NCBI GenBank assembly: GCA_951406725.2
Contig: OX597841.1
Span: forward strand, 12,834,001-12,898,000
Direction of reading: 5' to 3'
From: Octopus vulgaris
Lineage: Eukaryota
Length of the DNA: 64,000 nucleotides
Shown piece by piece: positions 14,581-61,965 of the stretch (position 1 is the stretch's first letter; each line of letters opens with the position of its first letter). The notes under the pieces were generated by a model. The model made no database searches and was not told the DNA's origin. It saw only the letters and a list, made by a program, of their open reading frames with translations. A program made the position numbers and the translations under genes.

Positions 14581-14727
14581 TTATTCATAATATATGAAAG
14601 AAATATCAAAGAACTTGTGGTTTGGCATGGATGTGATTCGATGATTGATATGTTTAACAAAGCGAAGTGTTTCCGAGTCTCGATAGACGAGGGCCAGAGA
14701 ATTGTGGGCTGGGCTGACAGTAAGCAG
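14581..14727 (-). CDS. OGFOD1: OGFOD1 exon 13 (last coding exon)
   Basis: [48 protein letters not shown], matching the OGFOD1 C-terminus; ttttcag acceptor; AATAAA just downstream. Confidence 0.95.
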
Positions 14728-14796
14728 CTGAAAATATATACAAAAACATTTATGAATATAAAAACATGAATTTATATAAAGTGAAAGAATGGAACT

Positions 14797-15024
14797 TAAC
14801 CCTTTAGTGTTCGCATTATTCTGCCAAAATTAATCCCTTTTTTATCCAAATTGTTTTGAACTAATCATGCATTATCTTGTAGCTATGAGATTTTGATGAG
14901 GTAGCTGTTAATTTTTAAAACGATATTGTAGGGTTGGTGTGAGAGACCAGATCTGGCCAGTTTGAATATAAAACAGGCTGAATACTTCTGGCCGGATATG
15001 GCCGGTTTAAATGCTTAAGGGTTC
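14797..15024. mobile_element. piggyBac-like MITE
   Basis: ttaa-ccctt ... aaggg-tt termini; related pieces near 26000-27015 and 62245-62470. Confidence 0.55.
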
Positions 15025-15497
15025 AGGCATGATATTCCATTGTTTAGTTACAGGAGTTTCAACACAACACATGCTTTTAGTGAATAAAAATATTAACCTT
15101 TGGAGCAGCCGAAACTGCAAATCCAATCTGGAACTCGACTGATGAAAGAAAACTCCGACTGACCCGTCCTTGTTTCTTCTTGTCCCTTTCTGTATCCCCT
15201 AACTGTATGAATGTTTTGTTGTTGCCTGTTGCGTTCTTGTCCTATTTTTTGTATCCTTTTTCATATACATATGTATGTACGTATGTGTGTATGTGTGTGT
15301 ATATGTTTGTGTGTCTGTGCACCCAACATCGCTTGACAACCGATGCTGGTGTGATTACATCCCCATAACTTAGCAGTTCAGCAAAAGACACCGATAAAGT
15401 ACTAGGCTTACAAAGAATAAGCCATGGGGTCAATTTGCTTGACTAAAGATGGTGCTCCAGCATGGCCACAGCCAAATGGCTGACACAAATAAAAGAA

Positions 15498-15880
15498 TCA
15501 TCATCATCGTTTAACGTCTGCTTTCCATGCTGGCATGGGTTGGACGGTTTTGACTGAGGACTGGTGAACCAGATGGCTGCACCAGGCTCTAATCTTGATT
15601 TGGCAGGGTTTCTACAGCTGGATGCCCTTCCTAACACCAACCACTCCGAGAGTGTAGTGGGCGCTTTTACGTGCCATTGGCACGGGGGCCAGTCAGGTGG
15701 TACTGGCAACGACCTCACTCGAATCTTTTTACACATGCCACTGGCACAGGTGCCAGTAAGGCGACGCTGGTAACGATCATGCTCGAATGGTGTCTTTTAC
15801 GTGCCACTGGCACGGAGGCCAGGTAGCCACTCTGGCAACGATCATGCTCGGATGGTTCTCTTTGCACCCTACTAGCACCG
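15498..15880 (-). mobile_element. SINE family C (RTE-associated, (GAT)n tail, internal subrepeats)
   Basis: Conserved ggagtggttggYgttaggaagggcatccagctgtagaaa block on the minus strand. Confidence 0.8.
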
Positions 15881-15956
15881 AATATATATATATATATATA
15901 TACTGGTATTTAACTCTAAATAACTATGTATGTATGTATATATAGCAGAAGCTTAC

Positions 15957-16015
15957 CTCTTCATCTTCACCATTCACTATATATGATATATATCCGCCAT
16001 AGTCTGGTTGCCAAC
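15957..16015 (-). CDS. OGFOD1: OGFOD1 exon 12
   Basis: (G)WQPDYGGYISYIVNGEDEE; AG/GT boundaries, phase consistent. Confidence 0.95.
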
Positions 16016-16507
16016 CTACAATGAAAAACATTAGATAATGTAGTCCTAGGTACACTGTGGCTGACTAGGTGCAGACATTAATGCTGGAATACCTTTACTC
16101 ATGGGTCTGTTGGACCTGGAATTACCTGGGGCCATACAACAGCAACAAGGAAGGGGACACTGGATGATATAATCCAAGATTTGCTATGTCTGAATATAAG
16201 TTGAGATGGTCATGATTGGAACTTCCCTGATCATAGGTTTACTGTATTAGAATAATAACAAGATGAAACAACTCTTTTTTCAGAGAGGAATTTGGCCATT
16301 TTCCAATAAAGTGAGTAAAAGACGGAGAAGAGAATAATTATCCCCAGGAAGACCAAACAGCTAAGTGGACTATGGTAGGGTTTGAACTCAGAGTGTAAAG
16401 AGCCAGAAAAAAATCCTGCAAAGCATTTTATCCAACATGCTGCTGATGATGATGATGATGATGATGAATGATGATGATGATAATAATAATAATAATAATG
16501 TTTTGTG

Positions 16508-16995
16508 TTGGTATAAAAGATGGGCTACAGCAAATATTCTGCTCAATACCACAGATTTGCTTGTCAGTTGTTTGACCTTAACCAGTTGAGTATGTCCCTT
16601 AGTGGCTGACGATATGTGCATCTCTGATCACGAGCAGAAGTAGTGGGGGAGCATCATAGCCATATGTTGAGAGGGATTCTTTGGGGTTTGAATAATTCAC
16701 CTTTGGAAACATGGGTGGTTCTTTCAACATCCTTAAACAACCCTTATTCAGGGACCTTTTGAGCGGGATGGGCTACTCAACCTGAAGAAAATTCTAACTG
16801 GGTCCCACATGCAAGGTCATGTGCTGTTTATCTTGATATGAGATCACCATGTCACACATGTATGGTTGTGATGCATGTGCCTGGTGTACCCTTATCAGAC
16901 GGGTAGTCATGATGGGTATACTGGGCTTCGTATATTTTACCTCAGTGTCACTTTGATGGCATGCACTGCTCTGCTCTCTCACTCAATAATAATAA
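16508..16995 (+). mobile_element. ~490-bp interspersed repeat with (AAT)n tail (family D), copy 1
   Basis: Near-identical to 21133-21620; embedded in (AAT)n runs. Confidence 0.75.
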
Positions 16996-17169
16996 TAATC
17001 CTTTCTACTATAGGCACAAGGCCTGAAATTTTCTTGTGGCAGGGCAGTGAATTAGATCAATCCCCAGTATGCAACTGGTACTTAATTCATCACCCCAGAA
17101 AGGAAGAAAGGCAAAGTCGACCTCAGCAGAATTTGAACGCAGGAGGAGAATAATAATAATAATAATAAC

Positions 17170-17307
17170 CTTCACATCCAAAGAACAAGAATGTATCTAA
17201 AGCATAATCAGCCGACTTTGCCTCTGTGTCTCGCAGGAGTGTGTAAGATCCATGGGACCACATTCGGACTTCATGGCTACAGCTGGCTTCACTGCTATCA
17301 GGGGTAC
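17170..17307 (-). CDS. OGFOD1: OGFOD1 exon 11
   Basis: (G)TPDSSEASCSHEVRMWSHGSYTLLRDTEAKSADYALDTFLFFGCE, similar to OGFOD1 ELRHWKTGHYTL...ALDLILYCGCEG. Confidence 0.93.
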
Positions 17308-17570
17308 CTGGGAAATAAGAAAAATTAAAAAAACATATACAGGTGTATCAAATACCATTCAGCATAAATTACTGTTTTTACCTTTTACTTGTTCCAGTTG
17401 AATGAATCAACCCCAGGAAATACTTTTTTTGTTTTTGTAAAGTCTGATAATTATTCTATTGGTGTCTTTTGTCGAACTGCTAAGTTACAGGGACATAAAC
17501 AAACCAACACTGGTTGACAAGTAGTGGTAAGGACAAACACATGTACTAAGACACACACACACACACATGA

Positions 17571-17612
<42 letters not shown>

Positions 17613-17615
<3 letters not shown>

Positions 17616-18013
17616 CGTAGGAGTGGCTGTGTGGTAAGTAGCTTGCTTACCAGCCACATGGTTCCGGGTTCAGTCCCACTGTATGGCACCTTGGGCAAGT
17701 GTCTTCTACAATAGCCTCGGGCCAACCAAAGCCTTGTGAGTGGTTTTGATAGACGGAAACTGAAAGAAGCTCGTCATATATATGTATATATATATGTATA
17801 TGTTTGTGTGTCTGTGTTTGTCCTCCCAACATCACTTGACAACCGATGCTGGTGTGTTTACGTCTCCGTAACTTAGCGGTTCAGCAAAAAACACTGATAG
17901 AATAAGTACCAAGCTTACAAAGAATAAGTTCTGGGAGTGGATTTGCTCGACTAAAAGCAATGCTCCAGCATGGCCGCAGTCACATGACTGAAACAAGTAA
18001 AAGAGTAAGAGAG
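17613..18013 (+). mobile_element. SINE family A, full length
   Basis: A-box tggctgtgtgg, B-box ggttcagtccc, CORE-like block and 3' tail. Confidence 0.88.
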
Positions 18014-18026
18014 TATATATATATAT

Positions 18027-18245
18027 CAGTGGTTTTCAACCAGGGTTCCGCGGAACCTTAGGGTTCCGCCAGTACAGTCCAGGGGTTCCGCAAGAAGTTA
18101 CAAAACCGCTAAAATCGGCAGTAATTTCTAATTCTCCTGTGCAGATATGTGTGCATAAGACAATTAAATTATTGCACAGGGGTTCCTCAAGCCAGTGGAA
18201 TGTTTCCTTGGGGTTCCGCTCCAGCAAAAAGTTTGAAAAGCACTG
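18027..18245 (-). mobile_element. hAT-like MITE, copy 2
   Basis: Reverse complement of 10747-10947; atatatat on both flanks. Confidence 0.8.
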
Positions 18246-18335
18246 ATATATATAATTGTTAAAGAGGACAACAAACATTAAGTCAAGACAAACATCTCAA
18301 GTCTTATGCAATATTGTTATTGGAAAAAATTCAAA

Positions 18336-18391
18336 GTCTTACAGCTGTTTCTGGGATATCAGCGCGAATGGGATATTCCGTCATCAGAGAC
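18336..18391 (-). ncRNA. Minimal type-I hammerhead ribozyme motif
   Basis: Minus strand gtct-CTGATGA-c-ggaatatc(ccattcgcgct)gatatccc-a-GAAA-cagctg-TA^agac: intact core, stem I gtct/agac, palindromic stem III ACAGCTGT. Confidence 0.8.
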
Positions 18392-18861
18392 AAATAGGGA
18401 AAATGAGAAGGGTTTATATATATATTAATGAGATGACGACATAGAGGAAGGGAGTAAAAGAATAAGGAGATGGAAAGAGAGAAGAAAAAAGAAGCATAAA
18501 AGTTCATAGTTCAACTTTCTGAAGTTATAGAAACGAGTCCTTGGGTGCAAAATCCTGCGTGGATCCATGATGTGGGTTAAAAGTCCTGACGCGGTAGACA
18601 TCCTGAGATGTTATTGACTGTTGATATGTTCGTGTCTTTTGTCTCAGGAGGTTTACTCCATCAGGATTTGAACCCACGTGAATCTACGCAGGACTGGACC
18701 GGAGGAAAATGAACCAAGGGGAATAACTCAGGGGCCAGTGACATCTCTTTGAACAACAGATAAAAACGTGTGTGTATGCGTGTGTGTGTGCATGGACTCA
18801 CGTGAACACACACCTGTCATCAGCCTCGTCAAATCCATTTACCATATGAGCATGGGTGTCC

Positions 18862-18893
<32 letters not shown>

Positions 18894-19599
18894 ATATAAG
18901 AGGGATGACCACTATATATACATTATGCTAGAGGTAGACATCATATGGTCTGACCCCATATGGGGTCTACCTCTAGCATAATAGATGTCCACTTAGTGGT
19001 CATCTCTCTTATATGTATGTAATATAATTTTTCTGATGCTTGGCCACTGGTTTTAAATTGATATTAATCAAATTAATATTCAATTTGTTCACCCTTAATA
19101 TTTAAATATATATTTCGTTTTTTGGATTTGGTTTGCAAGATTCTTTATGTGAGTTCGTGTGTTGAAGCATTTTCTGTTGTGTCTGGGGAGGGTCATTCTC
19201 TTTAGATGCCTTCCTCATTTAACATCCATTGTCCATGCTGGTATGGGTTGGACAGTTTCACCAGGGCTGGCACGCTGGAAGGCTGCACCAGACTCCAGTC
19301 TGATTTGGCAGGGTTTCCACAGCTGGATGACCTTCCTAATGCCAACCACTCCAAGACTGTAGTACATCGGTAATTATCTTGACTTGTAATAAAGCATTAA
19401 AACTTTCGACTTTTAGTACATCCTTGAGGCTAATGGTGGAGCCTGAAGCCCTCAAAGCATTTTGGCTGGGATTAGCATAAAAACTGAAGACTGAAGCAAG
19501 TAAAAGAGTTTATAGGGAGAGTGAGAGAGAAGGTGACCAAAGATGACAGACGTTAGAAGGGGTTACCTAAGGGGCCAGAGCAACAATAACACAACTTAC

Positions 19600-20117
19600 C
19601 TTTCTCCGGCCGAGCTTTGACCGTTTCGCTATCGCCACTTGTGACCGCTGGAAGACTACACTTACTGGTCTCTGTATTGGTCACCTTAGTTGACTGCTGT
19701 CCAGCTGGTTCGGAGGAGGAGGAGGTCGATGAAGGGGTGGTGGTGGTGGTGGTGGTGGTGGGGCCATCATTGGGGCCAACTGAGACGGCTTCTGCACTGC
19801 TCCGACTGGAACAGCCATCTTTCTGGGACTTTCCGAGGTTTTTCCTGTTCTCAGCGGAGACTCTGCTGTTCTGGGGGTCGATCCGGACATTTGTGTTGTT
19901 GTTGTTTTTATCATTTCTGCCTTCAGGGCTCTGATGACTGTCAGTGTCATCGCTGACGTTGTCCTCGTCATCGTCATCACTGACCGGAGCGTCCTTGTGG
20001 AGCTTCAGACCAGTTAGGTTCGAGAGGAAGAGAAACATAATTTCCGACTGAAGCAGCCGGAGACAGTCGGCGATAATCTTGGGGAATGTTCCAGGGTTAG
20101 CAGCCACAGAGTAGTTC
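19600..20117 (-). CDS. OGFOD1: OGFOD1 exon 10
   Basis: (R)NYSVAANPGTFPKIIADCLRLLQSEIMFLFLSNLTGLKLH followed by a long D/N/S/T-rich linker; tgcag acceptor, gtaagt donor. Confidence 0.92.
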
Positions 20118-20192
20118 CTGCAACGACAACAACAACATCATCCTCATTATTTTAATCTTCACTTTTCCATGGGTTAGATGGGGTACATCAAG

Positions 20193-20463
20193 CAGGGCTG
20201 TGGAGTCAGAGTCAGAAATAATTAAAGCATAGCTGGAGTCAGAGTCGGTAAAACTATACTGACTCTGACTCGCGATATCTTTATTCTTTAATCTAAACCA
20301 GTTATGAGATACAGGCCGACTCAAAGTACAAACGTATGCTTTATGTGGCATGTAGACCACAATCACTTGATTACATAAAGAGGAGTCAGAGTCGGAGTCA
20401 GGGGTGCCAATAGTAGAGGAGTCAGAGCTGGAATCAGTTATTTGTTCCGACTCCACAGCCCTG
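20193..20463. mobile_element. MITE with CAGGGCTGTGGAGTC terminal inverted repeats and internal GAGTC(A/G) subrepeats (hAT-like)
   Basis: TIRs cagggctgtggagtcaga / tccgactccacagccctg; no clear TSD. Confidence 0.7.
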
Positions 20464-20473
20464 GTTTTAACGT

Positions 20474-20507
<34 letters not shown>

Positions 20508-21132
20508 ATAACATACACCACACGCCCGACAGAATACTAACATAGCAAGAAACTAAAGCCCATAACAAGACAAACGGGTAGAGGAGACCAACAGGAAGAG
20601 CAAAGGGGGCAGAGGAAAGACGCATGAAATTGCCAAAGAGAAATAACGATTATCAGGTAAAGGGAGACAACTTCCTTTTACATCAATTCATCCACCCGCA
20701 GCACATTCCCAAGGCACACAGAGCTGAATAATAATCCTTTCTACTGGAAACACAAGGCCTCAAATTTGGGAGAAGCGATTAAGTCGATTACATCGACCCC
20801 CAGTGCGTAACTGGTACTTATTTAATCGACCCAGAAAGGATGAAAGGCAAAGTCGTCCCAAGCGAAATTTGAACTCTGAACATGGTGCTTTGCAAAAAGT
20901 CAATAACAATGAAAAAATATAACAAAGAACATGACTAAAGGAGGCAAGCAACTCAGGGCTGCTCATGGAGACCCCAAGAAAAGTCTACAAGTGCCCCGAA
21001 CACTAAGGCAAGAGCCCTCTCTCTCTCTCAGCCTTGGAAACTCAAAAGCACATGCTCAAAGCAGGCCCCTTGACACGGACCACCTTTGCCACATTCACCC
21101 ACCTACCAACAAATAATAATAATAATATCGTC

Positions 21133-21620
21133 CTGGTATAAAAGATGGGCTACAGCAAATATTCTGCTCAATACCACAGATTTGCTTATCAGTTGTTTGA
21201 CCGTAACCAGTTGAGCATGTCCCTTAGTGGCTGACGATATGTGCATCTCTGATCACGAGCAGAAGTAGTGGGGGAGCATCATAGCCATGTGTTGAGAGGG
21301 ATTCTTTGGGGTTTGAATAATTCACCTTTGGAAGCATGGGTGGTTTGTTCAACATCCTTAAACAACCCTTATTCAGGGACCTTTTGAGCGGGATGGGCTA
21401 CTCAACCTGAAGAAAATTCTAACTGGGCCCCACCTGCAAGGTCATGTGCTGTTTATCTTGATATGAGATCACCATGTCGCGCACATATGGTTGTGATGCA
21501 TGTGCCTGGTGTACCCTTATCGGACAGGTAGTCGTGATGGGTACATTGGGCTTCGTATATTTGTACCCCAGTGTCACTTTGATGGCATGAACTGCTCTCT
21601 CACTCAATAATAATAATAAT
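21133..21620 (+). mobile_element. Family D repeat, copy 2
   Basis: Near-identical to 16508-16995. Confidence 0.75.
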
Positions 21621-21919
21621 AATAATGGTAATCTTTTCTACTAAAGGCACAAGGCCTGAAATTTGCAGAGAGAGGCTAAGTCGATTACATCAACACCAGT
21701 GCGTAACTGGTACTTATTTTATTGACCCCGAAAGAATAAAAGGCAAAGATTTGAACTCATAACATAAAATTGCCAAAAGCAATACCACAAGGTATCTTGT
21801 TTGGTGTTCAAAGAATTCTTCCAGTCGACAATCCTACGTGTTTTACAGATATCGGAAGAGAAGGAAAGGAGTGTGAAGAGGAAGAGGGTAAGGTGATAGT
21901 GACCATGTAAAGGAAATAC

Positions 21920-21999
21920 CTTTGGTTGGCAGGGCCTCGATGGACCCACTCAATCTGGCTCTGTAAGAAGGCGTCATTCACTGCTGAATATTTCTCTGG
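21920..21999 (-). CDS. OGFOD1: OGFOD1 exon 9
   Basis: PEKYSAVNDAFLQSQIEWVHRGPANQ(R); conserved W..RGP.N.R motif. Confidence 0.93.
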
Positions 22000-22297
22000 C
22001 TGAAAGATCAGACGAGAGGAAAAGAAAATGAAACAGCAATGGAAACAGACACAAAGAAAGAATTGGGGGAGAGGTTTGTCATCAACCAAGCTTTACCTGC
22101 TAGAAATAGCAACCAAAATACTTTTAAATCAGATCCCAATGCTAGATATTCAAGAACCAAATGAAGGGCAGATATTCAATCCTGGGATAATCCTGATTCC
22201 AAAAAGGTATAAAATGTCTATGTAGAACAAAAGTAGACTGAGATACAGGGATCCCGGACGGACAGAATTTCATGTTTTTATTATTATAGATTAATTA

Positions 22298-22336
<39 letters not shown>

Positions 22337-22513
22337 TGTGTACAGTGCTCAGGTGCACTACAACTCATCTAAAGTGTATATATAGTCAGGTGTAGTTTCG
22401 GCGGATTTCGGAAAGCATGAGGGCCTTAAAGGATGCAGTGTCATAAAATTCAAACAGTTTACATCGTTCAACACATACAAACATTGAAAGTGAAGGAATA
22501 CAAATGTACCAAC

Positions 22514-22627
22514 CTTAAGGAAATCCTGGAGCTGTATTTCAGACTCGAGTTCAAATTTCTCTCTAATTTCCGACTGGACTTCGAGATCAAGGTAGGAAGG
22601 GTTCACCCACTCAAACAACAGATCTGT
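22514..22627 (-). CDS. OGFOD1: OGFOD1 exon 8
   Basis: TDLLFEWVNPSYLDLEVQSEIREKFELESEIQLQDFLK. Confidence 0.94.
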
Positions 22628-33721: not shown

Positions 33722-35470
33722 TCATCATCATCGTTTAACGTCCGCTTTCCATGCTAGCATGGGTTGGACGGTTCAACTGGGGTCTGGCAAGCACGAAGGC
33801 TGCACCAGGCCAGTCAGATCTGGCAGTGTTTCTACTGCTGGATGCCCTTCCTAACGCCAACCACTCCGAGAGTGTAGTGGGTGATTTTATGTGCCACCGA
33901 CACAGGTGCCAGGCGAGGCTGGCAGACGGCCACGCTCGGATGGTGTTTTTATGTGCCACCGACACAGGTGCCAGACGAGGCTGGCAGACGGCCATGCTCG
34001 GATGGTGTTTTTATGTGCCACCGACACAGGTACCAGACGAGGCTGGCAGACGGCCACGCTCGGATGGTGTTTTTATGTGCCACCGACAAGGTACCAGACG
34101 AGGCTGGCAGACGGCCACGCTCGGATGGTGTTTTTATGTGCCACCGACACAGGTGCTAGACGAGGGTGGCAGACGGCCACGCTCGGATGGTGTTTTTATG
34201 TGCCACCGATACAGGTACCAGACGAGGCTGGCAGACGGCCACGCTCGGATGGTGTTTTTATGTGCCACCGACACAGGTGCCAGACGAGGCTGGCAGACGG
34301 CCACGCTCGGATGGTGTTTTTATGTGCCACCGACACAGGTGCCAGACGAGGCTGGCAGACGGCCACGCTCGGATGGTGTTTTTATGTGCCACCGACACAG
34401 GTACCAGACGAGGCTGGCAGACGGCCACACTCGGATGGTGTTTTTATGTGCCACCGACACAGGTGCCAGACGAGGCTGGCAGACGGCCACGCTCGGATGG
34501 TGTTTTTATGTGCCACCGACACAGGTACCAGACGAGGCTGGCAGACGGCCACGCTCGGATGGTGTTTTTATGTGCCACCGACACAGGTACCAGACGAGGC
34601 TGGCAGACGGCCACGCTCGGATGGTGTTTTTATGTGCCACCGACACAGGTACCAGACGAGGCTGGCAGACGGCCACGCTCGGATGGTGTTTTTTATGTGC
34701 CACCGACACAGGTGCTAGACGAGGGTGGCAGACGGCCACGCTCGGATGGTGTTTTTATGTGCCACCGATACAGGTACCAGACGAGGCTGGCAGACGGCCA
34801 CGCTCGGATGGTGTTTTTATGTGCCACCGACACAGGTGCCAGACGAGGCTGGCAGACGGCCACGCTCGGATGGTGTTTTTATGTGCCACCGACACAGGTG
34901 CCAGACGAGGCTGGCAGACGGCCACGCTCGGATGGTGTTTTTATGTGCCACCGACACAGGTACCAGACGAGGCTGGCAGACGGCCACACTCGGATGGTGT
35001 TTTTATGTGCCACCGACACAGGTGCCAGACGAGGCTGGCAGACGGCCACGCTCGGATGGTGTTTTTATGTGCCACCGACACAGGTACCAGACGAGGCTGG
35101 CAGACGGCCACGCTCGGATGGTGTTTTTATGTGCCACCGACACAGGTACCAGACGAGGCTGGCAGACGGCCACGCTCGGATGGTGTTTTTATGTGCCACC
35201 GACACAGGTACCAGACGAGGCTGGCAGACGGCCACGCTCGGATGGTGTTTTTATGTGCCACCGACACAGGTGCCAGACGAGGCTGGCAGACGGCCACGCT
35301 CGGATGGTGTTTTTATGTGCCACCGACACAGGTGCTAGACAAGGGTGGCGAACGGCCACGCTCGGATGGTGTTTGTTACGTGCCCTCAGCACGGAGGCCA
35401 GTTGATGCGGTACTGGCTACGGTCACGCTTGGATGGTTTTCTTATGTGCCACTGGCACTGGTACCATAAA
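33722..35470 (-). mobile_element. SINE family C copy with an internal 62-bp tandem expansion
   Basis: (CAT)n tail and conserved family C block at 33722-33885, followed by the tandem array. Confidence 0.8.
33886..35390. repeat. 62-bp minisatellite, ~24 copies
   Basis: Unit ttttatgtgccaccgacacaggtRccagacgaggctggcagacggccacgctcggatggtgt. Confidence 0.97.
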
Positions 35471-41311: not shown

Positions 41312-41937
41312 GTATATGTATGTATGTATGTATATGTATGTATATATTTATATATGTATATATAATATATGTGTGTGTTCAGAGGGGGTGAGAGTAATTG
41401 ATGTATATACAGGCATACATACATACATATATGCTTATGTACAACACACACAAACACACATAAATGTAAGCGCATGGCAGTGTGTGTGTGTGCGTGCATA
41501 CGTGTGTGTGTGTGTGTGTCAGAGAGAGAGAATGCGTTGAGTAGGATAATGAAGATTCTACAGTTGCTTTTAAATACCAATCTACTAACGAGCTGAAACA
41601 GAAGCCAGTTTGGCGACGCATAGACACCAAAATACACACACACACACACACACACCCCTCCAAAACACACATATACACACAGACAGACAGACAAACAGGC
41701 AGCAACACATAACCGGTGACTGTCCAATCAGACAAAAGATTGTCTCGGCCTGTTTTCATTTCCACCCCCACCCCCCATAAAGCTCCCCCCCTCACTTATA
41801 TAATACCCCCATTTTGAACGAGTGTTCCACAACCCGAGCGTGAGCATCCACTCTCTCTCTCTCATAGCAACAGTGTCCACTCACTCTGTCCGCATCAGAC
41901 TGAAGGCCCTCTCTGTGTGGCGCAACCGTCAACCGCG

Positions 41938-41943
41938 TATAAG
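41938..41943 (+). promoter_or_regulatory. Candidate TATA box of the M4 protease gene
   Basis: TATAAG ~130 nt upstream of the ATG in unique sequence; CCAAT at ~41724. Confidence 0.45.
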
Positions 41944-42070
41944 GCCCTACACCTGGAAAGTTGGCTGTTTTAAACATTTGCCTCTGTCCCCTGGCTCAAA
42001 GTCCACTGTTCCATCCTTGCTGTGACTCTGCTTGACCAATTCTGACTGACCACTGTGACACAGAGAGACG

Positions 42071-42119
42071 ATGGCTACCTGTAGAGTTGGGGTCCTGCTC
42101 CTGTTTCTCGTAATACTTG
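42071..42119 (+). CDS. M4 metalloprotease exon 1 (signal peptide N-terminal part)
   Basis: gacgATGG Kozak context; MATCRVGVLLLFLVIL + G then a consensus gtgagt donor; phase 1 joins exon 2 (G|CG = Ala). Confidence 0.8.
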
Positions 42120-42172
42120 GTGAGTTAAACGTACAATTTCTTGGTGTAAGTGTGTGTCTGTATGTACATGCA

Positions 42173-42263
<91 letters not shown>

Positions 42264-42690
42264 GTGTGTGTGTCCATCATCGCTTGACAACCGATGCTGG
42301 TGTGTTTACATCCCTGTAACTTAGCGGTTCTACAAAAGAGACTGATAGAATAAGTACTAGGCTCACAAAGAATAAGTCCTGGGAGTCGATTTGCTCGACT
42401 AAAGGCAGTGCTCCAGCATGGCCGCAGTCAAATGACTGAAACAGATAAAAGACTAAAAGAAAAAAATGTTAGCAAAATTTCAGGAAGTATGGAAGACCTG
42501 AAGGATGTTCGTTTCCTGACAGCGAACAACTGATGCAGGCAGTTGAGTCCATGCTTCATCGATTCTGAAACTGTAAAAATATGTTTCTGAAAGTCATGGG
42601 TATATTTATAGCCATGTGGATGTGGATGTGCATATGTGTGCCTCTCTCTCTCTCTCACTCTGTATTTATATAAATATGTGTGTATTATAG

Positions 42691-42734
<44 letters not shown>

Positions 42735-42877
42735 AATTAGAAAAAAAAACACCTTTTATCAATTCAATAATGAAAAATTACATCTTATAGAAAGATTAAA
42801 TATAAGATAAAACATATAACGATGATAAAGTAAAGTGCAAAATTCCCTGTAAGTTTGGAATTAGATTCCCTCATATT

Positions 42878-42909
<32 letters not shown>

Positions 42910-43101
42910 AATGGCGGTGCCCCAGCATGGCCACAGCTCATGAGCTGAAACTAGAATCAATCAATCAATCAATCATATGTATGTATATTCATCAAGTTGC
43001 CAGCTTGCAAAACCAATTAAGGGGGAAATTAATACAAAAGCTTATAATTTTTTCCTTATGTATAAAATACATTTAAATATATATTATCATATATATATGT
43101 A

Positions 43102-43155
<54 letters not shown>

Positions 43156-43289
43156 AAATATGTATAATGATATATTTAAAAATGTTAATTAGACAATTTT
43201 CATATTTATATATTAGATAATAATATAATAGATATTTAGAAATATTTCTTTTTAAATTTAAATAGCTGTCTCACATATATACAGACAAA

Positions 43290-43345
43290 AGGAGATAGAG
43301 AGAAAATTAGACAGGCAGACAGACGAGCAGTCAGGCAAGAGAGAA

Positions 43346-43404
<59 letters not shown>

Positions 43405-43424
43405 CAGACAGACAGACAGACAGA

Positions 43425-43488
<64 letters not shown>

Positions 43489-43505
43489 CAGATAGACAGA
43501 CAGAC

Positions 43506-43600
<95 letters not shown>

Positions 43601-43649
43601 TAGATAGATAGAGAGAGAGATAGATAGACAGACATATAGATAAGTAGAC

Positions 43650-43700
<51 letters not shown>

Positions 43701-43762
43701 TAGATAGATAGATAGAGTGATGGACAGAGATGGATGGACAGACAGACAGAGAGACAGACATA

Positions 43763-43830
<68 letters not shown>

Positions 43831-43980
43831 TAGATATAGATAGATAGAGTGATGGACAGAGATGGATGGACAGACAGACAGAGGTGGAGAGAGAGAGAGA
43901 GAGAGAGAGATAAATAAATAGATGGATGGATGAATAAAAACAGACAGACAGACAGACAGACGGGCAGACAGACAGAGAAT
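43290..43980. repeat. (GA)n/(GATA)n/(GACA)n compound microsatellite
   Basis: Directly visible. Confidence 0.95.
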
Positions 43981-44067
43981 GAAAAGTGAAAGAAAAAGTA
44001 AAGTCGATTGTTTTATGTGACACATGTATATTCTGATCTGATAGAATTTAACGAAGCAAAACATTGA

Positions 44068-44136
<69 letters not shown>

Positions 44137-46061
44137 AGTCTCCGGTCTAACACTTGAAAGGTTATTTAGTTGAGTTTCTCCATAATAAACCCAGCTCCTA
44201 TTAGAATTCGTTATTAGTAATTATTCCAAGGCTGTCGTTAGCTGGCAGATTCATTACTGTGCCCCTGTAAAAATGCTAAGTGGTATTTCAGCTCTCTTTA
44301 CATTCTGAGTTCAAAATCCCCCAAGGTCGACTTTTCCTTTCATCCCCTTCGGGGTCAATAAAATCAAACCTGGGTGCCAAACCCCTAATTAATGAAGTTA
44401 ACATTTTTGTTAACAATTTCAATTTTAAGTTAACATTGGAAATCATTATTGGACTAATTAAATTCCATTAACACAAATCTACTTGAGTTAACTTCATTTG
44501 AATTGAAGTTAAAGGATTTTATAGTTTTGGCCCTTTTTAAAGGTGTTTTTAGGTGATTCTAGAGCAAAAACTGGTTTGGGGGGGAGGGTTTCTATAATTA
44601 AAATAAACATTAACGGTTTATCGATAACTTCTCTTACATTTTTAAAGAATTAACAAATTGATGTTTATCAAAGTTTACTTTTTGGTTAACAGATTAACGG
44701 TTAACAAAGTTAACATTTTGATTAACAGTACCCACCTTTAAACAAAATATGAACCAGCTGTTCTGGGGTTGATGTAATTGATTTATCTCCCGCCACAGAA
44801 ATTGCTGGTCTTGTGCCAAAATTTGAAACCCACAATTATTGCATTTCTGCCTCTTCTGTCTTATTGAACAAAGCATTTTTCTTAATGAGGAAAAGTTGCA
44901 CACCTCACATCTTTAGATATTGATCTTCTACTGGTGATTATAAAAACCCTTATAGCTTTCAATATCCAAAGACCCGTGACCTAATGGTGGAGGTGTTGCT
45001 CTCACAGTCTAGTGATTTGGGGTCAGAGAAATTGAAGGGGAAAATAAGACCAACACCTGGACATGGCTAAATGGTCTGAAAGGATGCCCTGATGCCCTGA
45101 TTTATAGCATCCAGGAACAAGCTCTGAGAACTAATTGTACCAAGTTCCGCATAGATAAGAGCAGTGAATCACCCCTTTGCAGCGAAAATGGAACAATCTC
45201 ATATGTTGAGAGTGAATCTAGCAAACTGGCCCAAAACCACAATAGAAGGAGGCATGATAATGTGGCAAAGTTTGTTCACTGGAGACTGAGTGAGGAATAC
45301 AGTTTTGGAAGAATATTGAAATGGAATGAACCAACACCAGATTTCAAGTGATGTTGGGGGAAGCAAACACAAAGACACACACATAAATATATACAAACAT
45401 ATATATATACACAACAGGCTTCTTTCAGTTTCCGTCTAACAAATCCCCTCATAAGGCTTTGGTTGGCCCAAGGCTATAGTAAAAGACACTTGACCAAGGT
45501 GCCATGCAGTGGGATTGAACCCAGAACCATGTGGTTAGGAAGCAAGCTTCTTACCACACAGCTATGATAGACCAGTCCAAGCTGTATACCACCCCTGGGG
45601 TGCTGTACTCATGTTGTCCTTCAGCTTTAGGGATCTTACCAGAATGAGGATCCTGGATCCTGATGTCAACTCTGTCCATCATTTACTACAAATGCTCCTT
45701 TGTCCCCTATACTCCAGGTAAGAGAGGTGGGGGGAAGTCATATTTTTCTGGGGTACATCACATTTCTGCTTAAATGTTAAGGGATTGCTGGAACAATTCT
45801 TTGGCATTATTAAAGCAAAGTTCCCTCCACAGCATAAATATCAGCAGATGTTTAACTTGTTTACGACAAAACTCTTTTATTCTACCACACCTAATATACG
45901 TCCTGCCATTGTCACTTCAAACGAATATAAATTCGGTCATAACAACACACGTAATTCTTATCAAAGCAGTCGTGGCTATAATAACTCTGTAACAACTGTT
46001 TTAATAGTAGGGAGAATTAGTTCAGTTAATAGTAGTTTAATTAACGAGGATAATGAAGATG

Positions 46062-46094
<33 letters not shown>

Positions 46095-46357
46095 TTATAA
46101 TAAATAAATACGCCCTTTTAAAGCCTAGCCAGGCTCATGGGCCTGGTTTCCCAGTTTCAATGGTCTATGTGTTCTCCATCTGGACGGGACGACAGTCCAT
46201 CGCAGTGTTACTCATTTTTGCCAGCTGAGTGGACTGGAGCAATGTGAAATGAAGTGTTTTGCTCAAGAACACAGCACGTCGCCCGGTCCAGGAATCGAAA
46301 CCACAATCTTACAATCATGGTGCTGGCACCCTAACCACTAAACCACATGCCTCCACA

Positions 46358-46433
<76 letters not shown>

Positions 46434-46856
46434 CGAAAGGCAAAGTCACCCTCAGTGGAATTTGAACTCAGAACCTAGTGACAGGCAAAATACTGCAAAG
46501 CTTTATGCCTGATGTGCTAACGATTCTGCCAGCTCACTGCCATAACATTAATAATAATAATAATAACGATAATGATAATAATAATAATAATAATGATGAT
46601 GATAATAAGAGCAACAAGTTATAATAATGATAATAACTGGATAATGTCTTTTCCCATATCAAAAGATAACTAAAGCCCTTCACCTCTCCTCACATCCACC
46701 CTTTCTCTCTCTCTCTCTCTCCAGCATTTTATCACATAAATTCTAACTAATAATTATGATGATTGTGGTAATAAGAGAATTAGTACATACTTTAGTAATA
46801 GTAATAATAATATTAGTATTGATATTATTATTATTGTTGTTATTATTATTATTATT

Positions 46857-47013
46857 AGGAGTGGCTGTGTGGTAAGTGGCTTGCTTACCAACCACTTGGT
46901 TCTGGGTTCAGTCCAACTGTGTGACACCTTGGGCAAGTGTCTTCTACTATAGCCTTGTGAGTGGATTTGGTAGATGGAAACTAAAAGAAGCCTGCCATAT
47001 ATATGTATGTATG

Positions 47014-47045
<32 letters not shown>

Positions 47046-47255
47046 AATATGTTTGTGTATCTGTGTTTGTCTCCCCATTATCACTTGACAGCTGACGCTG
47101 GTGTGTTTACGTTCCCGTAACTTAGCAGTTTGGCAAAAGAGACCGATAGAATAAGTAATAGGCTTACAAAGAATAAGTCCTGGGGTCGATTTCTTCGACT
47201 AAAGGCAGTGCTCCAGCATGGCCACAGTCACATGACTGAAACAAGTAAAAGAGAG
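46857..47255 (+). mobile_element. SINE family A
   Basis: Matches other copies. Confidence 0.85.
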
Positions 47256-47419
47256 TTACGTCCATCAAAACCTCAAAGCCACAAGATAATGCATGATTAA
47301 TAAAAGACTTGTGAATAAAAAAACCATTCCTTTCGACAGAAAACTGCTGAGGCCGAAGGGTTAAAGATCTTTTTCTCATAATATTCTCTTCAAATATTAT
47401 TATTATTTTTTTCTTCTTT

Positions 47420-48415
47420 AAGGCAGTGAGCTGACAGAATCATTAGTGCAATGGACAAAATACTTAACAGTATTTCGCCCATCAAAGGCAGCAAGCTGGC
47501 AGAAGCGCTATTGCACCGGGCGAAATTCTGATCGATATTTCGTCTGCCGTTACGTTCTGAGTTCAAATTCCGCCGAGGTCGACTTTGCCTTTCATCCTTT
47601 CGGGGTTGATTAAATTAAGTACCAGTTACGCACTGGGGTGGATGTAATCAACTTAATGCGTTTGTCTGTCCTTGTTTGTCCCCGTGTTTAGCCCCTTGTA
47701 GGTAGTAAAGAAATAGGTATTTTGTCTGCCGTTATGTTCTGAGTTCAAATTCCGCCAAGGTCGACTTTGCCTTTCATCCTTTCGGGGGTCGATAGAATAA
47801 GTACCAGTTAAAGCCTGGGGAGGTCGATGTAATCAACTTAATACCTATGTCTGTCCATGTTTGTCCTCTCTGTATTTAGCCCCTTGTGGGTAGTAAAGAA
47901 ATAGGTATTTCGTCTGCCGCTACATTCTGAGTTCAAATTCCGCCGAGGTTGACTTTGCCTTTCATCCTTTCAGAGTCGATAAATTAAGTACCAGTTACAC
48001 ACTGGGGTCGATGTAATCGACTTAATGCATTTGTCTGTCCTCGTGTTTGTCCCCTTGTGGGTAGTAAAGAAATAGGTATTTTGTCTGCCGTTATGTTCTG
48101 AGTTCAAATTCCGCCAAGGTTGACTTTACCTTTCATCCTTTCGGGGTCGATAAATTAAGTACCAGTTACGCACTGAGGTCGATGTAATCGACTTAATCCC
48201 TTTGTCTGTCCTTGTTTGTCCTCTCTGTGTTTAGCCCCTTGTGGGTAGTAAAGAAATAGGTATTTTGTCTGCTGTTATGTTCTGAGTTCAAATTCCGCCA
48301 TGGTCGACTTTACCTTTTATGCTTTCGGGGTCGATAGAATAAGTATCAGTTAAAGACTGGGGTCTATGTAACTGACTCGCCCCCTCCCCTAAAGTTGTGG
48401 CAAAATTTGAAACCA
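47420..48415 (+). mobile_element. SINE family B with five tandem internal units
   Basis: Units starting tatttYgtctgcYg at ~47536, 47718, 47905, 48077 and 48261. Confidence 0.88.
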
Positions 48416-48448
48416 TTATTATCTTCCTCTTTCTCTCTCTCTCTCTAG

Positions 48449-50295
48449 CGTTCCTGGGGAGCCATTGTGTGACGTCAGCGAAATGGCGACAGGCTCGGGA
48501 CGTGTTCCTGTCCAACGTGGAGACGCTGAGTGAGATGGTGAAGCGACAGCCGAGTCACATGATCACCACACGTGACCTGTTTGGTCTAACCAAGGACGAG
48601 GATGTCGAATTAACAGATTCAGCACCAAGCGTACAAGGAACAGACATCAAAAAGTACCACGAGACTTACAGAGGACTTCCCGTGTTTGATGCCACCCTCA
48701 CCGTGGAGACGGATGCCAAAACCCATGTGTACACGGGCCAGGTGACAGGTAAACTGGTTCAAAACCTTGATGATGACATCAACTCTACAATACCAAATGT
48801 CACTGAACAGGAAGCTGTGCAGTTAGCTCTGATGTATGGCAAATTCCCTATGGAAGGGGCCCGCATAGACAGTGACAAACCTCAGTTGATGATCTATGTG
48901 AAGGACAGTATCGGAATTCTGGTTTACCGAGTTCAATACTTCGCTGTGTCTGATGGGGAAAATTATCGATTTTGCATGATGATCAATGCAAAGAATGGAA
49001 GGCTTGTAGACAAATGGAACACACTAGAAACTGCGAGAGAGAAATATCAGATGAAAGGCATAGGAGGGAACAAATTGATAGGGAAGAAAACATACGGGGA
49101 ACTGCTCCCTTATTTGCAGGTGAGGCGGACGGGAGAAGATTGCTATTTCCGCAACAGCTTCGTGATCGTTGTGAACCTGAATGGAAAGGAGTTTCTCTCA
49201 GATGAGGATGAAAAAACTTATCATACCAACTGCAAGAATGGTGCAAAGGATGAAATAAATGGAGCTTATTCCCCGATAAATGATGCTCTTTTCTACGGTA
49301 CCATTATCCACAATATGTACATGGAATGGGTGAAAGTGCCCCCGAAGAAACAATTGCCTATGATCTTTCGGGTGCACTACGGACACAACACGGCCGTGGC
49401 TAACTACAACGGCCGAAACTTTACGTTTGGTGATGGTGATGACACCTTCCTGCCTCTTGTCGGCCTCGACATAGTTGCACACGAAGTGACACACTGCTTC
49501 ACAGAAGAACATTCAAACCTGGTGTACGAGGGTCAGTCAGGGGGCATCGACGAATCCTTCAGTGACCTGGCCGGAGAGGCAGCCGAATATTTTGAAAAAG
49601 GAAGCAACGACTGGGAAGCTGGAGGCGGCGTCACCAAAAATTCGATACGCAAACTTTGTAAACAATCGGAGGATGGTAAATCAATCACAGATGCTGGAAA
49701 CATCTCCGATGATATGGATGTGCACTACCTCAGCGGAGTGTTCAACCGGTTCTACTGTCTGTTAGCCAATTACAAAGACTGGAGTGTTAAGAAAGTATTC
49801 CAGATAACGGCACACAGCAACCGTTTCTACTGGCATCCAAAAACCAACTTCACAGAGGCTGCTTGTGACATCATGAAGTCCACTTATGATCTCGGCTATG
49901 ATACAGCTTCTGTACAGGAATCTTTTGCAAAAGTAGGCATCAAAGTCTGCGATATATCTATGTACATCCGCAACATTCATGAGAACTCAGTAGTTGAGGG
50001 TCTGAGTTCAGTTCCTGGAGAGAAAATCTTGTTTAAACTCAATGTGAAAACGGTATCATTAAAGAAAGTGAAAGTTATTACTTTTGCTGGAACCGGAGAA
50101 GTAGATGTTTATGCTTGCTACAAAAGAAGTCGGTGCTCTGAACGTTTGACAAAATGGCGATCAAGTCAGCCCGGAACGGACCAATTCCTTTCGATTAGAC
50201 ATCCAAAAGTGGGAAAATACTTCGTAACGCTAAAACCAAAAACAAGGTCATATTTTGCAAATGTAACAATCAAAGTGAATTATGAAAAAGATTAA
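48449..50295 (+). CDS. Secreted peptidase family M4 (thermolysin/vibriolysin-like neutral zinc metalloprotease) exon 2: FTP + PepSY propeptide, catalytic domain, C-terminal PPC-like domain
   Basis: HEVTH (49480-49494) + GGIDESFSD zinc ligands; INGAYSPINDA, VHYG, TFGDG..F.PLV.LD, DVHY.SGVFNR motifs as in LasB/vibriolysin; (CT)n-tag acceptor at 48448; AATAAA at 50309. Confidence 0.96.
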
Positions 50296-50629
50296 AATAT
50301 TTCTTTTAAATAAAAAAAAGTCTTCTTTTATTTTCTTTTGTGTTCTAAAAACCATGCATGAACAGAGCTTTCGTAAGATCAAATTCAGTTCATTTTAAAT
50401 TAAATTTAGTAATTGTCTTAACAAAGTCTAATTAAATTGATAAATGCAAAAACAAAAACTGTGACCCCAATCAGAACTAATCGAAGCTGTTATTGATTAC
50501 ATCAATTTAAATACACACACGCACACATATATACATCTACATACACCAGCATCATCAGTTTTAACCTCCACTTTCCATGCTTGCATGGACTAGATAAAAT
50601 TTACATATCTATCTATCTATCTATCTATC

Positions 50630-50969: not shown

Positions 50970-52115
50970 TTACATCTCTGCATGAAGAGATACATGCGTA
51001 GTTAAGTGACTTTTTTGAGAGAATGATTTGCCACAGACATCACAGTGATATGGCTTCTCCCCTGTATGGACACGTTTGTGTGTTGTCAGTTCACCACTCT
51101 GAGAAAAAGATGAACCACAGATATCACAGTGGTATGGTTTCTCTCCCGTATGAACACGTATGTGTCTGGTTAATTCACCACTCTGCGAGAACGGCTTGCC
51201 ACAGATATCGCAATGGTATGGATTCTCTCCCGTATGAATACGCCTGTGTTTAGTCAAGACACTGTTTTCAGAGAATGATTTACCACAGATATCGCAGTTG
51301 TAAGGCCTCTCTCCTGTGTGAATTCGTATGTGTCTTGTTAAATCGCTCCCCCTTGAGAATGATTTACCACAGATATCACACTGGTATATTTTCTCTTCTG
51401 CATGAAAATACTTATGTATGGTTAATTCGCTGCTTCCATAGAATGATTTACCACAGATATCACAATGAAATGGCTTCTCTCCTGTATGAACACGTTTGTG
51501 CTTTGTTAACTCACCACTCTGAGAGAACGACTTGTCACAGACATCGCATTGATATGGTTTTTCCCCTGTGTGAATGCGCTTGTGAGTAATCAGGTTGCTA
51601 CTGCCCGAGCAGGACTTACCACAGATATCACAGTGATATGGTTTCTCTCCTGTATGAATACGCTTATGAGTGGTTAGGTTACCTTTACGAGAGAACGATT
51701 TACCACAGATGTCGCAACGATAGGGTTTTTCTCCCGTGTGAATACGGTTGTGAATAGTCAGTTCCCCACTCTGAGAGAATGATTTACCACAGATGTCACA
51801 GCAATAGGGTCTCTCCCCTGTATGAATCCGTTTATGAGTGGTGAGGTTACCTTTTTGAGAGAAAGACACACCACATACATCGCAGTGAAACGGCTTCTCT
51901 CCTGTATGAATACGTTTGTGTTTAGTTAAATCACCATTTTCAGTGAATGATTTGCCACAGATATCACACTGATGGGACTTCTCTCCGGCAGGAATGCGCT
52001 TGAGTTTTGTTAAGTCACTACTTCCAGAGAACGGCTTACCATGGACATCACCATAGGATGACTTTCCAATCACTTTTGGCATATCTTCAGGATAAAACTC
52101 AATTAAGTTTCTCAT
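50970..52115 (-). CDS. C2H2 zinc-finger protein with 12 intact fingers and one degenerate finger
   Basis: Tandem C-x2-C-x12-H-x3-H with TGEKP linkers; first in-frame ATG at 52115 (the ORF track starts at TTG 52124); candidate acceptor at 52432. Confidence 0.93.
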
Positions 52116-61215: not shown

Positions 61216-61965
61216 ATGGAGGACCTTAGTCACTTCAACAATCCTGAGACACTTGTCTTTAATGATATAGAGACAGTTACACTGACAGACAGAGATGAGA
61301 AACCTTTATATAGCGAAACATTTACCAATCAAAGAACTTTGTACGACGATATTCCTCAATATTCTTGTGAGATTTGTAGGAAAACTTTCACTTCGCAATT
61401 AGATATCTTCGTGCACAAAGAAATGCACAGTAAGGAAAAAACATTCCGCTGTGAAATTTGTGGGAAATATTTTGTGTCCACCAGTGTGTTGACAAAGCAT
61501 AAGTTGATCCACACAGGTGAAAAACCATTCCACTGCGACATCTGTGGAAAATCTTTCACTCAGAATTCTAACTTAGTCGTTCATCAAAGAATCCACACGG
61601 GGGAAAAACCGTACGAGTGTGACTTGTGTGGAAAATCTTTTGTGAACAAATCTCATCTCGTGACCCACATACGTAGCCACACTGGAGAGAAACCGTTCCA
61701 TTGTGAAATCTGCGGCAAAGCCTTCAGCACTAATTTCCTCTTAAAGACGCACAGACAGATCCACACGGGACAGAAACTTTTCCACTGCGAAATCTGCGGA
61801 AACTCTTTCACTCAAAATTCCCACCTTGTTATCCACATCCGGAGTCACACGGGAGAAAAGCCGTATCATTGTGAAATATGTGAGAAGTCCTTTTTAACAA
61901 ACAGTCATTTGAAGAGACACAAACGAATCCACAGCCGAGGGAAACCATTCAACAGCGAAACATGA
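61216..61965 (+). CDS. C2H2 zinc-finger protein with 7 fingers
   Basis: Seven C2H2 fingers with TGEKP linkers; acceptor tttgcag at 61007; candidate non-coding first exon with gtaagt donor at 57687; AATAAA downstream. Confidence 0.94.
   Translation: MEDLSHFNNPETLVFNDIETVTLTDRDEKPLYSETFTNQRTLYDDIPQYSCEICRKTFTSQLDIFVHKEMHSKEKTFRCEICGKYFVSTSVLTKHKLIHTGEKPFHCDICGKSFTQNSNLVVHQRIHTGEKPYECDLCGKSFVNKSHLVTHIRSHTGEKPFHCEICGKAFSTNFLLKTHRQIHTGQKLFHCEICGNSFTQNSHLVIHIRSHTGEKPYHCEICEKSFLTNSHLKRHKRIHSRGKPFNSET

Follow-up and report, generated by a model that had tools for sequence, protein, structure and literature searches.

A gene with the layout of a secreted bacterial metalloprotease lies in a 64,000-nucleotide stretch of the Octopus vulgaris genome (assembly GCA_951406725.2, contig OX597841.1, positions 12,834,001 to 12,898,000 of the forward strand; the whole stretch is called the window below). 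This raises the question of how a peptidase of the M4 family came to be encoded in an octopus, when it arrived and what it does there. The explanation held with good confidence is that the locus carries a spliced and conserved protease gene of the vibriolysin type, orthologous to ZnMP2 of Octopus bimaculoides, which would go back to a single ancient transfer by which a proteobacterial gene entered the ancestor of molluscs or an earlier ancestor, and whose product would be secreted to digest extracellular protein.

The gene consists of two exons on the plus strand with coding parts at 42071–42119 and 48449–50295, which together specify a product of 631 residues. The start codon ATG lies at 42071, the coding part of exon 1 measures 49 nt and the stop codon ends at 50295. 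Between the exons lies a phase-1 intron of 6,329 bases with a GT donor at 42120 and an AG acceptor at 48447–48448. The exon 1/exon 2 junction is exact in contigs of 2184, 2180 and 2130 nt from three runs of three studies, where the match halts at 42119 and is followed by the first 30 bases of exon 2. Exon 2 in turn is spanned from the acceptor to 50278–50314 by contigs of matching length and depth. These runs are RNA by the tool's guess only, none being recorded as RNA or labelled by tissue, yet the intron is missing from the contigs, which shows that it is spliced. A fourth run matched at exon 1 yields a 187-nt exon-1 fragment only, and next to none of the gene's words occur in four listed runs, which is no evidence on expression either way. 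The 5′ ends of the contigs fall at 41802, 41816 and 41832, from which the start site cannot be fixed, and the contig of one run has 17 extra bases inserted at 42035, within the 5′ untranslated region (UTR). Furthermore, an independent contig from run X18 joins the open reading frame (ORF) to the intron and the 3′ flank, a linkage whose absence from long reads an earlier note, made from the letters of this stretch alone, had counted against its reading. The gene is thus a spliced, conserved octopus host gene, and the intact 631-residue protein with a spliceosomal intron described in that note is matched by the exact gene model.

The copy in X18 is diverged and differs from the window gene at 25 coding positions, 21 of them synonymous and four non-synonymous (pN/pS 0.05, p = 5e-11). 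Against the two nearest intact paralogues, dN/dS is 0.16 and 0.19. The gene is under strong purifying selection; a lack of expression together with a dN/dS near 1, which the earlier note had named as speaking against domestication, is contradicted by the spliced contigs and by these values. A genome search for M4 relatives returned 13 matches at 11 loci on five contigs. Nine loci have long intact frames and one on contig C11 has a frameshift close to its end. The locus at C9:114.56 Mb (L010, L012, and L013) is a defective member of the window's subfamily; two in-frame stops as well as frameshifts disrupt it, and it has kept its splice acceptor. A phase-1 AG acceptor is found at the same position, 12 codons ahead of a conserved anchor, in 11/11 loci, although some of the encoded proteins share no more than about 35% of their residues with that of the window; for the ten paralogous loci this comparison concerns the acceptor only. 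Because the acceptor position is common to all loci, the signal-peptide intron probably predates the duplications. Five of the paralogues form a tandem cluster at C11:36.32–36.42 Mb (L005–L009). Their propeptides are almost the same, their catalytic domains vary more and their dN/dS is higher (0.36–0.76), a pattern which may reflect gene conversion or diversifying selection. The window's subfamily (L001–L003) has a third-position GC content of about 0.50 as opposed to about 0.26 on C11 (L004–L009), and within the window gene this value drops from 0.59 to 0.35 towards the 3′ end. The intron of the C29 paralogue (L003) contains, on the opposite strand upstream of exon 2, an open frame which we take to be a fragment of a reverse transcriptase of a long interspersed nuclear element (LINE).

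The window protein has an identical counterpart among annotated O. vulgaris records (CAI9742933.1, "M4 family metallopeptidase"), matches XP_029653636.1 of O. sinensis at 628/631 residues, and shares 574/631 residues (91%) with XP_014774680.1 of O. bimaculoides, with which it falls on one tree branch. The latter protein is ZnMP2, one of seven Zn-metalloproteinases (ZnMP1–7) among 12 genes attributed to horizontal gene transfer (HGT), all of which were amplified from oligo-dT hepatopancreas cDNA (Liu et al., 2018; PMC6011040). Each of the published ZnMP2 primers has a single match in the window, one at 48613 and the other at 49156, and the pair delimits 544 bp, equal to the published product. 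The two genes are one-to-one orthologues encoding 631 residues each, and the published member has already been called horizontally acquired and shown to be transcribed. The orthologue of the window gene has therefore been in print as bacteria-derived since 2018, and the transfer is not a new discovery; the domesticated HGT gene of the earlier note stands as to its vibriolysin-type bacterial ancestry, expression and conservation, but neither as a discovery nor as an event at the level of cephalopods, being far older. O. vulgaris has 11 loci as opposed to the seven published for O. bimaculoides. The paper of Liu et al., which gives neither activity nor a tissue profile for the ZnMPs, is the only one on the mollusc M4 family found in the open-access literature, where searches turned up no work on the biochemistry or tissue distribution of these enzymes either. 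Term searches of the portions available of an amphioxus HGT paper and a centipede venom HGT paper returned no M4.

Named homologues come from three cephalopod, 15 bivalve, and six gastropod genera among the matches listed (the best 120 of 1057, 120 of 481, and 120 of 500). They form a mollusc clade with three branches, namely the window's subfamily, a branch of bivalves, gastropods and cephalopods, and a branch of abalone and Aplysia; the window's subfamily itself unites coleoids with scallops, oysters, pearl oyster and mussel. In the Shimodaira–Hasegawa-like approximate likelihood ratio test (SH-aLRT), the clade has a support of 93 in a 96-row LG+G4 tree (30 mollusc rows, 24 of them named or from this genome and six unnamed ones placed by an earlier tree) and of 91 in a 40-row mixture-model tree (10 rows). 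Both values lie below 95, stand without bootstrap and concern groups labelled after a FastTree had been seen, which tells against mollusc monophyly as a firm result. When the two coleoid rows from the window's subfamily are instead made to group with Vibrio, the resulting tree is rejected by the approximately unbiased (AU) test (p-AU 0.009). Because bivalves and cephalopods have two subfamilies in common, the transfer is placed, on the evidence of the trees, before these classes split. The 2018 abstract of a companion paper in Gene reportedly traces most of the acquisitions back to the ancestor of molluscs. In a subfamily that includes abalone (P0354, P0361, P0358, P0406, and P0407), the propeptide is set apart from the catalytic domain by a Thr-rich insertion, which reaches several hundred residues in P0406. 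In Saccostrea echinata (P0251), the M4 domain is annotated as fused to the ligand-gated ion-channel domains PF02931 and PF02932, probably a fusion of gene models.

Animal-like and vibriolysin-type proteobacterial rows are set apart from the thermolysin-type outgroup (Bacillus and Streptomyces M4s) with a support of 100 in both trees, and within this group the animal-like clade lies in a polytomy with the vibriolysin-type proteobacteria. The nesting within Vibrionales, Alteromonadales or Pseudomonadales which had been expected is thus resolved only to the grouping with the vibriolysin type; the donor was likely a proteobacterium of this type, of which no order can be named. With the vibriolysin/pseudolysin group (MCP-02, LasB of P. 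aeruginosa, HapA of V. cholerae) the octopus protein shares the FTP-PepSY-M4 layout with a probable PPC domain, the zinc and catalytic residues, four Cys and the fold (template modelling score, TM, 0.87–0.90). It differs in its 32–39% identity over the length, in the spliceosomal intron within the signal peptide, in an N-terminal extension with a dibasic site and in a VANY sequence in place of NAF/YW. The thermolysin/bacillolysin group shares HExxH plus E and the fold (TM about 0.75) but is far more distant (E 1e-20 to 1e-27) and lies outside the group formed by animals and vibriolysins. A comparable case is the phage lysozyme of bivalves, which according to the part available of its description is likewise an enzyme gene of foreign origin that molluscs have domesticated, though of an unrelated enzyme and a narrower range (PMC5303276).

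Several results weigh against naming a donor. Neither a tree that separates the 18 vibriolysin-type bacterial rows as a whole from the animals (support 69) nor trees that link the animals with Vibrio (p 0.83) or with Pseudoalteromonas/Ferrimonas (p 0.80) are rejected. The free quick search ended 25–29 log-likelihood units below the constrained ones and was therefore incomplete. Vertical inheritance of an ancient eukaryotic or metazoan gene, with loss from most lineages and without any transfer into animals, would account for an animal-like clade that can sit outside all sampled vibriolysin-type bacteria and that is carried past molluscs by animal-looking relatives lacking an organism name. Yet this clade groups, with the support of 100 given above, with one proteobacterial subtype characterized by the PPC tail and four Cys; no named non-mollusc eukaryote appears among the matches listed or among 20 representatives looked up, save for one probably host-derived record labelled as a gregarine; and Liu et al. 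discarded candidates with hits in at least two of 95 fungal, plant, protist and vertebrate genomes (PMC6011040). Vertical descent is accordingly improbable. A broad distribution, which the earlier note had set against transfer, is found across all three large mollusc classes and perhaps further, but in a clade which joins the vibriolysin type and not the thermolysin-type outgroup.

The relatives beyond molluscs emerged from a profile search of 1.84 billion representative proteins (best 150 of 17,326 hits). Twenty animal-looking proteins without organism name join the molluscs with an SH-aLRT of 93 in the 96-row tree, and nine do so at 99 in the 40-row mixture tree; several of these sister proteins occur as paralogue pairs on one large contig. 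A profile of the N-terminal extension built from molluscs scores above 5 bits in 8/16 sister proteins as opposed to 1/46 bacterial rows. A loose regular expression for the N-terminal motif separates the groups poorly (16/30, 10/20, and 6/46). The 20 representatives looked up comprise three gastropods, the gregarine-labelled record, and 16 proteins without organism name. The gregarine-labelled sister protein stems from a Siedleckia transcriptome, this gregarine presumably living in a polychaete, and is probably host-derived. The authors of this transcriptome took their parasites from annelid, mollusc and barnacle guts and observed host contaminants (PMC6733595). Among the loci listed from scans of GTDB genomes and JGI metagenomes (at least 80 each, 35–49% identity to the query) there was no close relative, and a search of the ESM Atlas returned only bacterial clusters.

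At the level of the protein, Pfam recognizes Peptidase_M4 (64.9 bits at a cut-off of 22.4, E 1.4e-17) and M4_C (88.2 bits at a cut-off of 24.4, E 7.5e-25), and FTP with an E of 8e-4, just below the curated cut-off. PepSY is weak by Pfam (0.013 in the O. sinensis orthologue; 18/29 family members at E ≤ 1), and PPC is detected in 2/29 family members and not in the window protein. The AlphaFold (AF2) model has a predicted local distance difference test score (pLDDT) of 85.8 and a predicted TM score (pTM) of 0.88, with residues 211–237 disordered. It superimposes on mature MCP-02 (TM 0.88, root-mean-square deviation 2.0) and on the MCP-02 propeptide (TM 0.78 by target length, E 1.7e-12), and its C-terminal domain, which has no Pfam hit, resembles PPC/collagen-binding domains (TM 0.70–0.76, E 2e-4 to 1e-3). 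PepSY and PPC, weak by sequence, are therefore supported by fold; in the full layout from signal peptide to PPC claimed by the earlier note, the M4 part is confirmed by Pfam, and the propeptide and a probable PPC domain are supported by structure. The best match in the PDB is LasB pro-elastase (2.7e-83), with thermolysin at 8.8e-27. The N-terminus, with the predicted signal peptide, is hydrophobic.

The retained HExxH plus E and catalytic His of that note are likewise found, with the zinc motif HEVTH at 361–365 (H361, E362, and H365) and the downstream Glu ligand E385 (ExxxD). Alignment to LasB also identifies the catalytic H442, Y376, and R417, which we take to be H223, Y155, and R198 in LasB numbering. 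Each of the four Cys in mature LasB has a counterpart here, at C248, C278, C489, and C517, as had been noticed, so that two disulfides are predicted. The six N-x-S/T sequons listed in the note are present but are no sign of domestication: their density is 0.79 per 100 residues in 30 mollusc cores and 0.86 in 42 rows counted as bacterial (p = 0.51).

One region departs from this conservation. The edge strand at 333–336 reads VANY where LasB has N112-A-Y114-W115. The NAxW strand is a conserved feature of M4 peptidases without defining the family, and in bacteria Asn is found in 39/41 rows and Trp in 41/41, which counts against an unchanged enzyme, since activity or specificity may differ. The alteration extends throughout the window's subfamily, in bivalves as well as coleoids, and two octopus paralogues retain NAFY. 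The window paralogue could accordingly be a weak or non-catalytic binding protein: the substitutions N112V, Y114N, and W115Y, in LasB numbering, fall on the substrate-binding strand, and the available part of a LasB study reports that these residues line S1 and that Y114A reduced elastin binding and activity (PMC4407726). However, H361, E362, H365, E385, R417, and H442 are retained in 50/50 animal-like rows, and a change made subfamily-wide under purifying selection fits altered specificity better than a protein that has lost its catalytic function. For these reasons, we read the VANY strand as a sign of altered specificity and not of activity loss, and a non-catalytic protein seems hardly likely.

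Taken further, these observations suggest a history which has about an even chance of being right. One vibriolysin-type transfer into a pre-mollusc ancestor, at least that of molluscs and annelids and possibly an earlier one, would have founded an overlooked invertebrate M4 family, which gained the N-terminal extension and the signal-peptide intron, split before the bivalve–cephalopod divergence and rebuilt the NAxW strand for a new specificity in the window's subfamily. If the sister proteins prove to belong to annelids or other phyla, this would be among the older retained bacteria-to-animal transfers.

M4 enzymes are secreted as zymogens whose propeptide assists folding, inhibits the enzyme and is removed by self-cleavage. 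By analogy with this family, the signal peptide would route the octopus protein to the endoplasmic reticulum for secretion as a zymogen, and the FTP/PepSY propeptide would fold and inhibit the enzyme until self-cleavage near residue 212. Zn2+ would then be bound by H361, H365, and E385, with E362 acting as the base and H442, Y376, and R417 holding the substrate. A hydrophobic S1′ pocket (F350, L353, I358, and I416) would favor cleavage before bulky hydrophobic residues, and the PPC-like tail may bind insoluble protein.

Digestion or matrix turnover outside the cell would be the role slightly favored over all others together, because the ZnMP2 transcript is found in hepatopancreas and the family is kept in non-venomous filter feeders. 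The hepatopancreas PCR concerned market animals from Shenzhen and one tissue (PMC6011040), which limits its weight for the role. Mucosal defence follows at some distance as an unlikely role, some other function is a little less likely again, and venom or saliva comes last. A transfer of recent date, confined to cephalopods and recruited for venom or saliva, would agree with the expansion to 11 loci in O. vulgaris and with metalloproteases, of unstated family, in the part available of a posterior salivary gland proteome of this species. The bivalve members of the window's subfamily and the rejected coleoid–Vibrio tree refute its recent-transfer half, and retention in filter-feeding bivalves would also argue against venom as the ancestral role. 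Moreover, no M4-type term was found in four cephalopod venom-gland papers, whose supplements were partly covered, and none of the ZnMP accessions tried was found in part of one proteome supplement. As far as these sources reach, the venom or hatching co-option suggested in the earlier note has no support, and the recent-transfer account as a whole deserves little credence; the window paralogue alone may have been recruited into venom later. Bacterial contamination or mis-assembly, which the bacterial-type architecture and the single long coding exon might have suggested, has practically no probability left, as the note had argued, given the spliced junction in three studies, the independent contig that carries the ORF together with intron and 3′ flank, the occurrence of orthologues in three species of Octopus, 11 loci on five contigs and a best bacterial identity of 32–39% among the matches listed.

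Evidence from splice junctions, a shared intron and selection thus confirms a case that is in print but has drawn little follow-up, in which a bacterial protease of the virulence type became an animal gene family. Its interest lies in the age and function of the family and in the altered S1 strand. In addition, automatic names such as "virulence metalloprotease" on such host genes can mislead studies of molluscs.

Table 1. Features of the M4 gene and its neighbours, in window coordinates.
Feature	Position	Strand	Basis
TATA-like box	41797–41803	+	only TATAWAW match in 41601–42071
5′ UTR of exon 1, no upstream ATG	41802–42070	+	contigs
Exon 1 coding part: signal peptide residues 1–16 plus one base	42071–42119	+	gene model, spliced contigs, hydrophobic N-terminus
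6.3-kb phase-1 GT-AG intron, rich in simple and dispersed repeats	42120–48448	+	contigs; blastn
Signal peptide end, N-terminal extension with dibasic KR at 48–49, FTP and PepSY propeptide (residues 17–211)	48449–49032	+	Pfam, fold
Predicted mature M4 catalytic domain (about residues 212–517)	49033–49950	+	Pfam, alignment, fold; mature start inferred from LasB alignment
C-terminal PPC-like beta-sandwich (about residues 518–631) and stop codon	49951–50295	+	fold match, HapA C-terminus alignment; no Pfam PPC hit
AATAAA poly(A) signal	50309–50314	+	sequence; contig ends 50278–50314
Host C2H2 zinc-finger ORF, neighbour	50970–52115	-	ORF and Pfam
Two OGFOD1 C-terminal-domain exons (14587–14727 and 22511–22627)	14587–22627	-	upstream context

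The flanks agree with the earlier description of a TATA-like box, a poly(A) signal and a position between OGFOD1 and zinc-finger genes, a second C2H2 zinc-finger ORF lying downstream at 61216–61965. No tRNA genes were found in the window. Repeats, which the earlier note had read as host short interspersed nuclear elements (SINEs), recur around the gene, with 115 blastn matches of at least 50 nt between the intron and the rest of the window. Directly 5′ of the splice acceptor, at 47485–48396, about five units of a dispersed repeat, roughly 185 bases each, lie head to tail. Further upstream, a GC-rich tandem repeat at 33751–35469 contains long repetitive ORFs in three frames and is probably a minisatellite.

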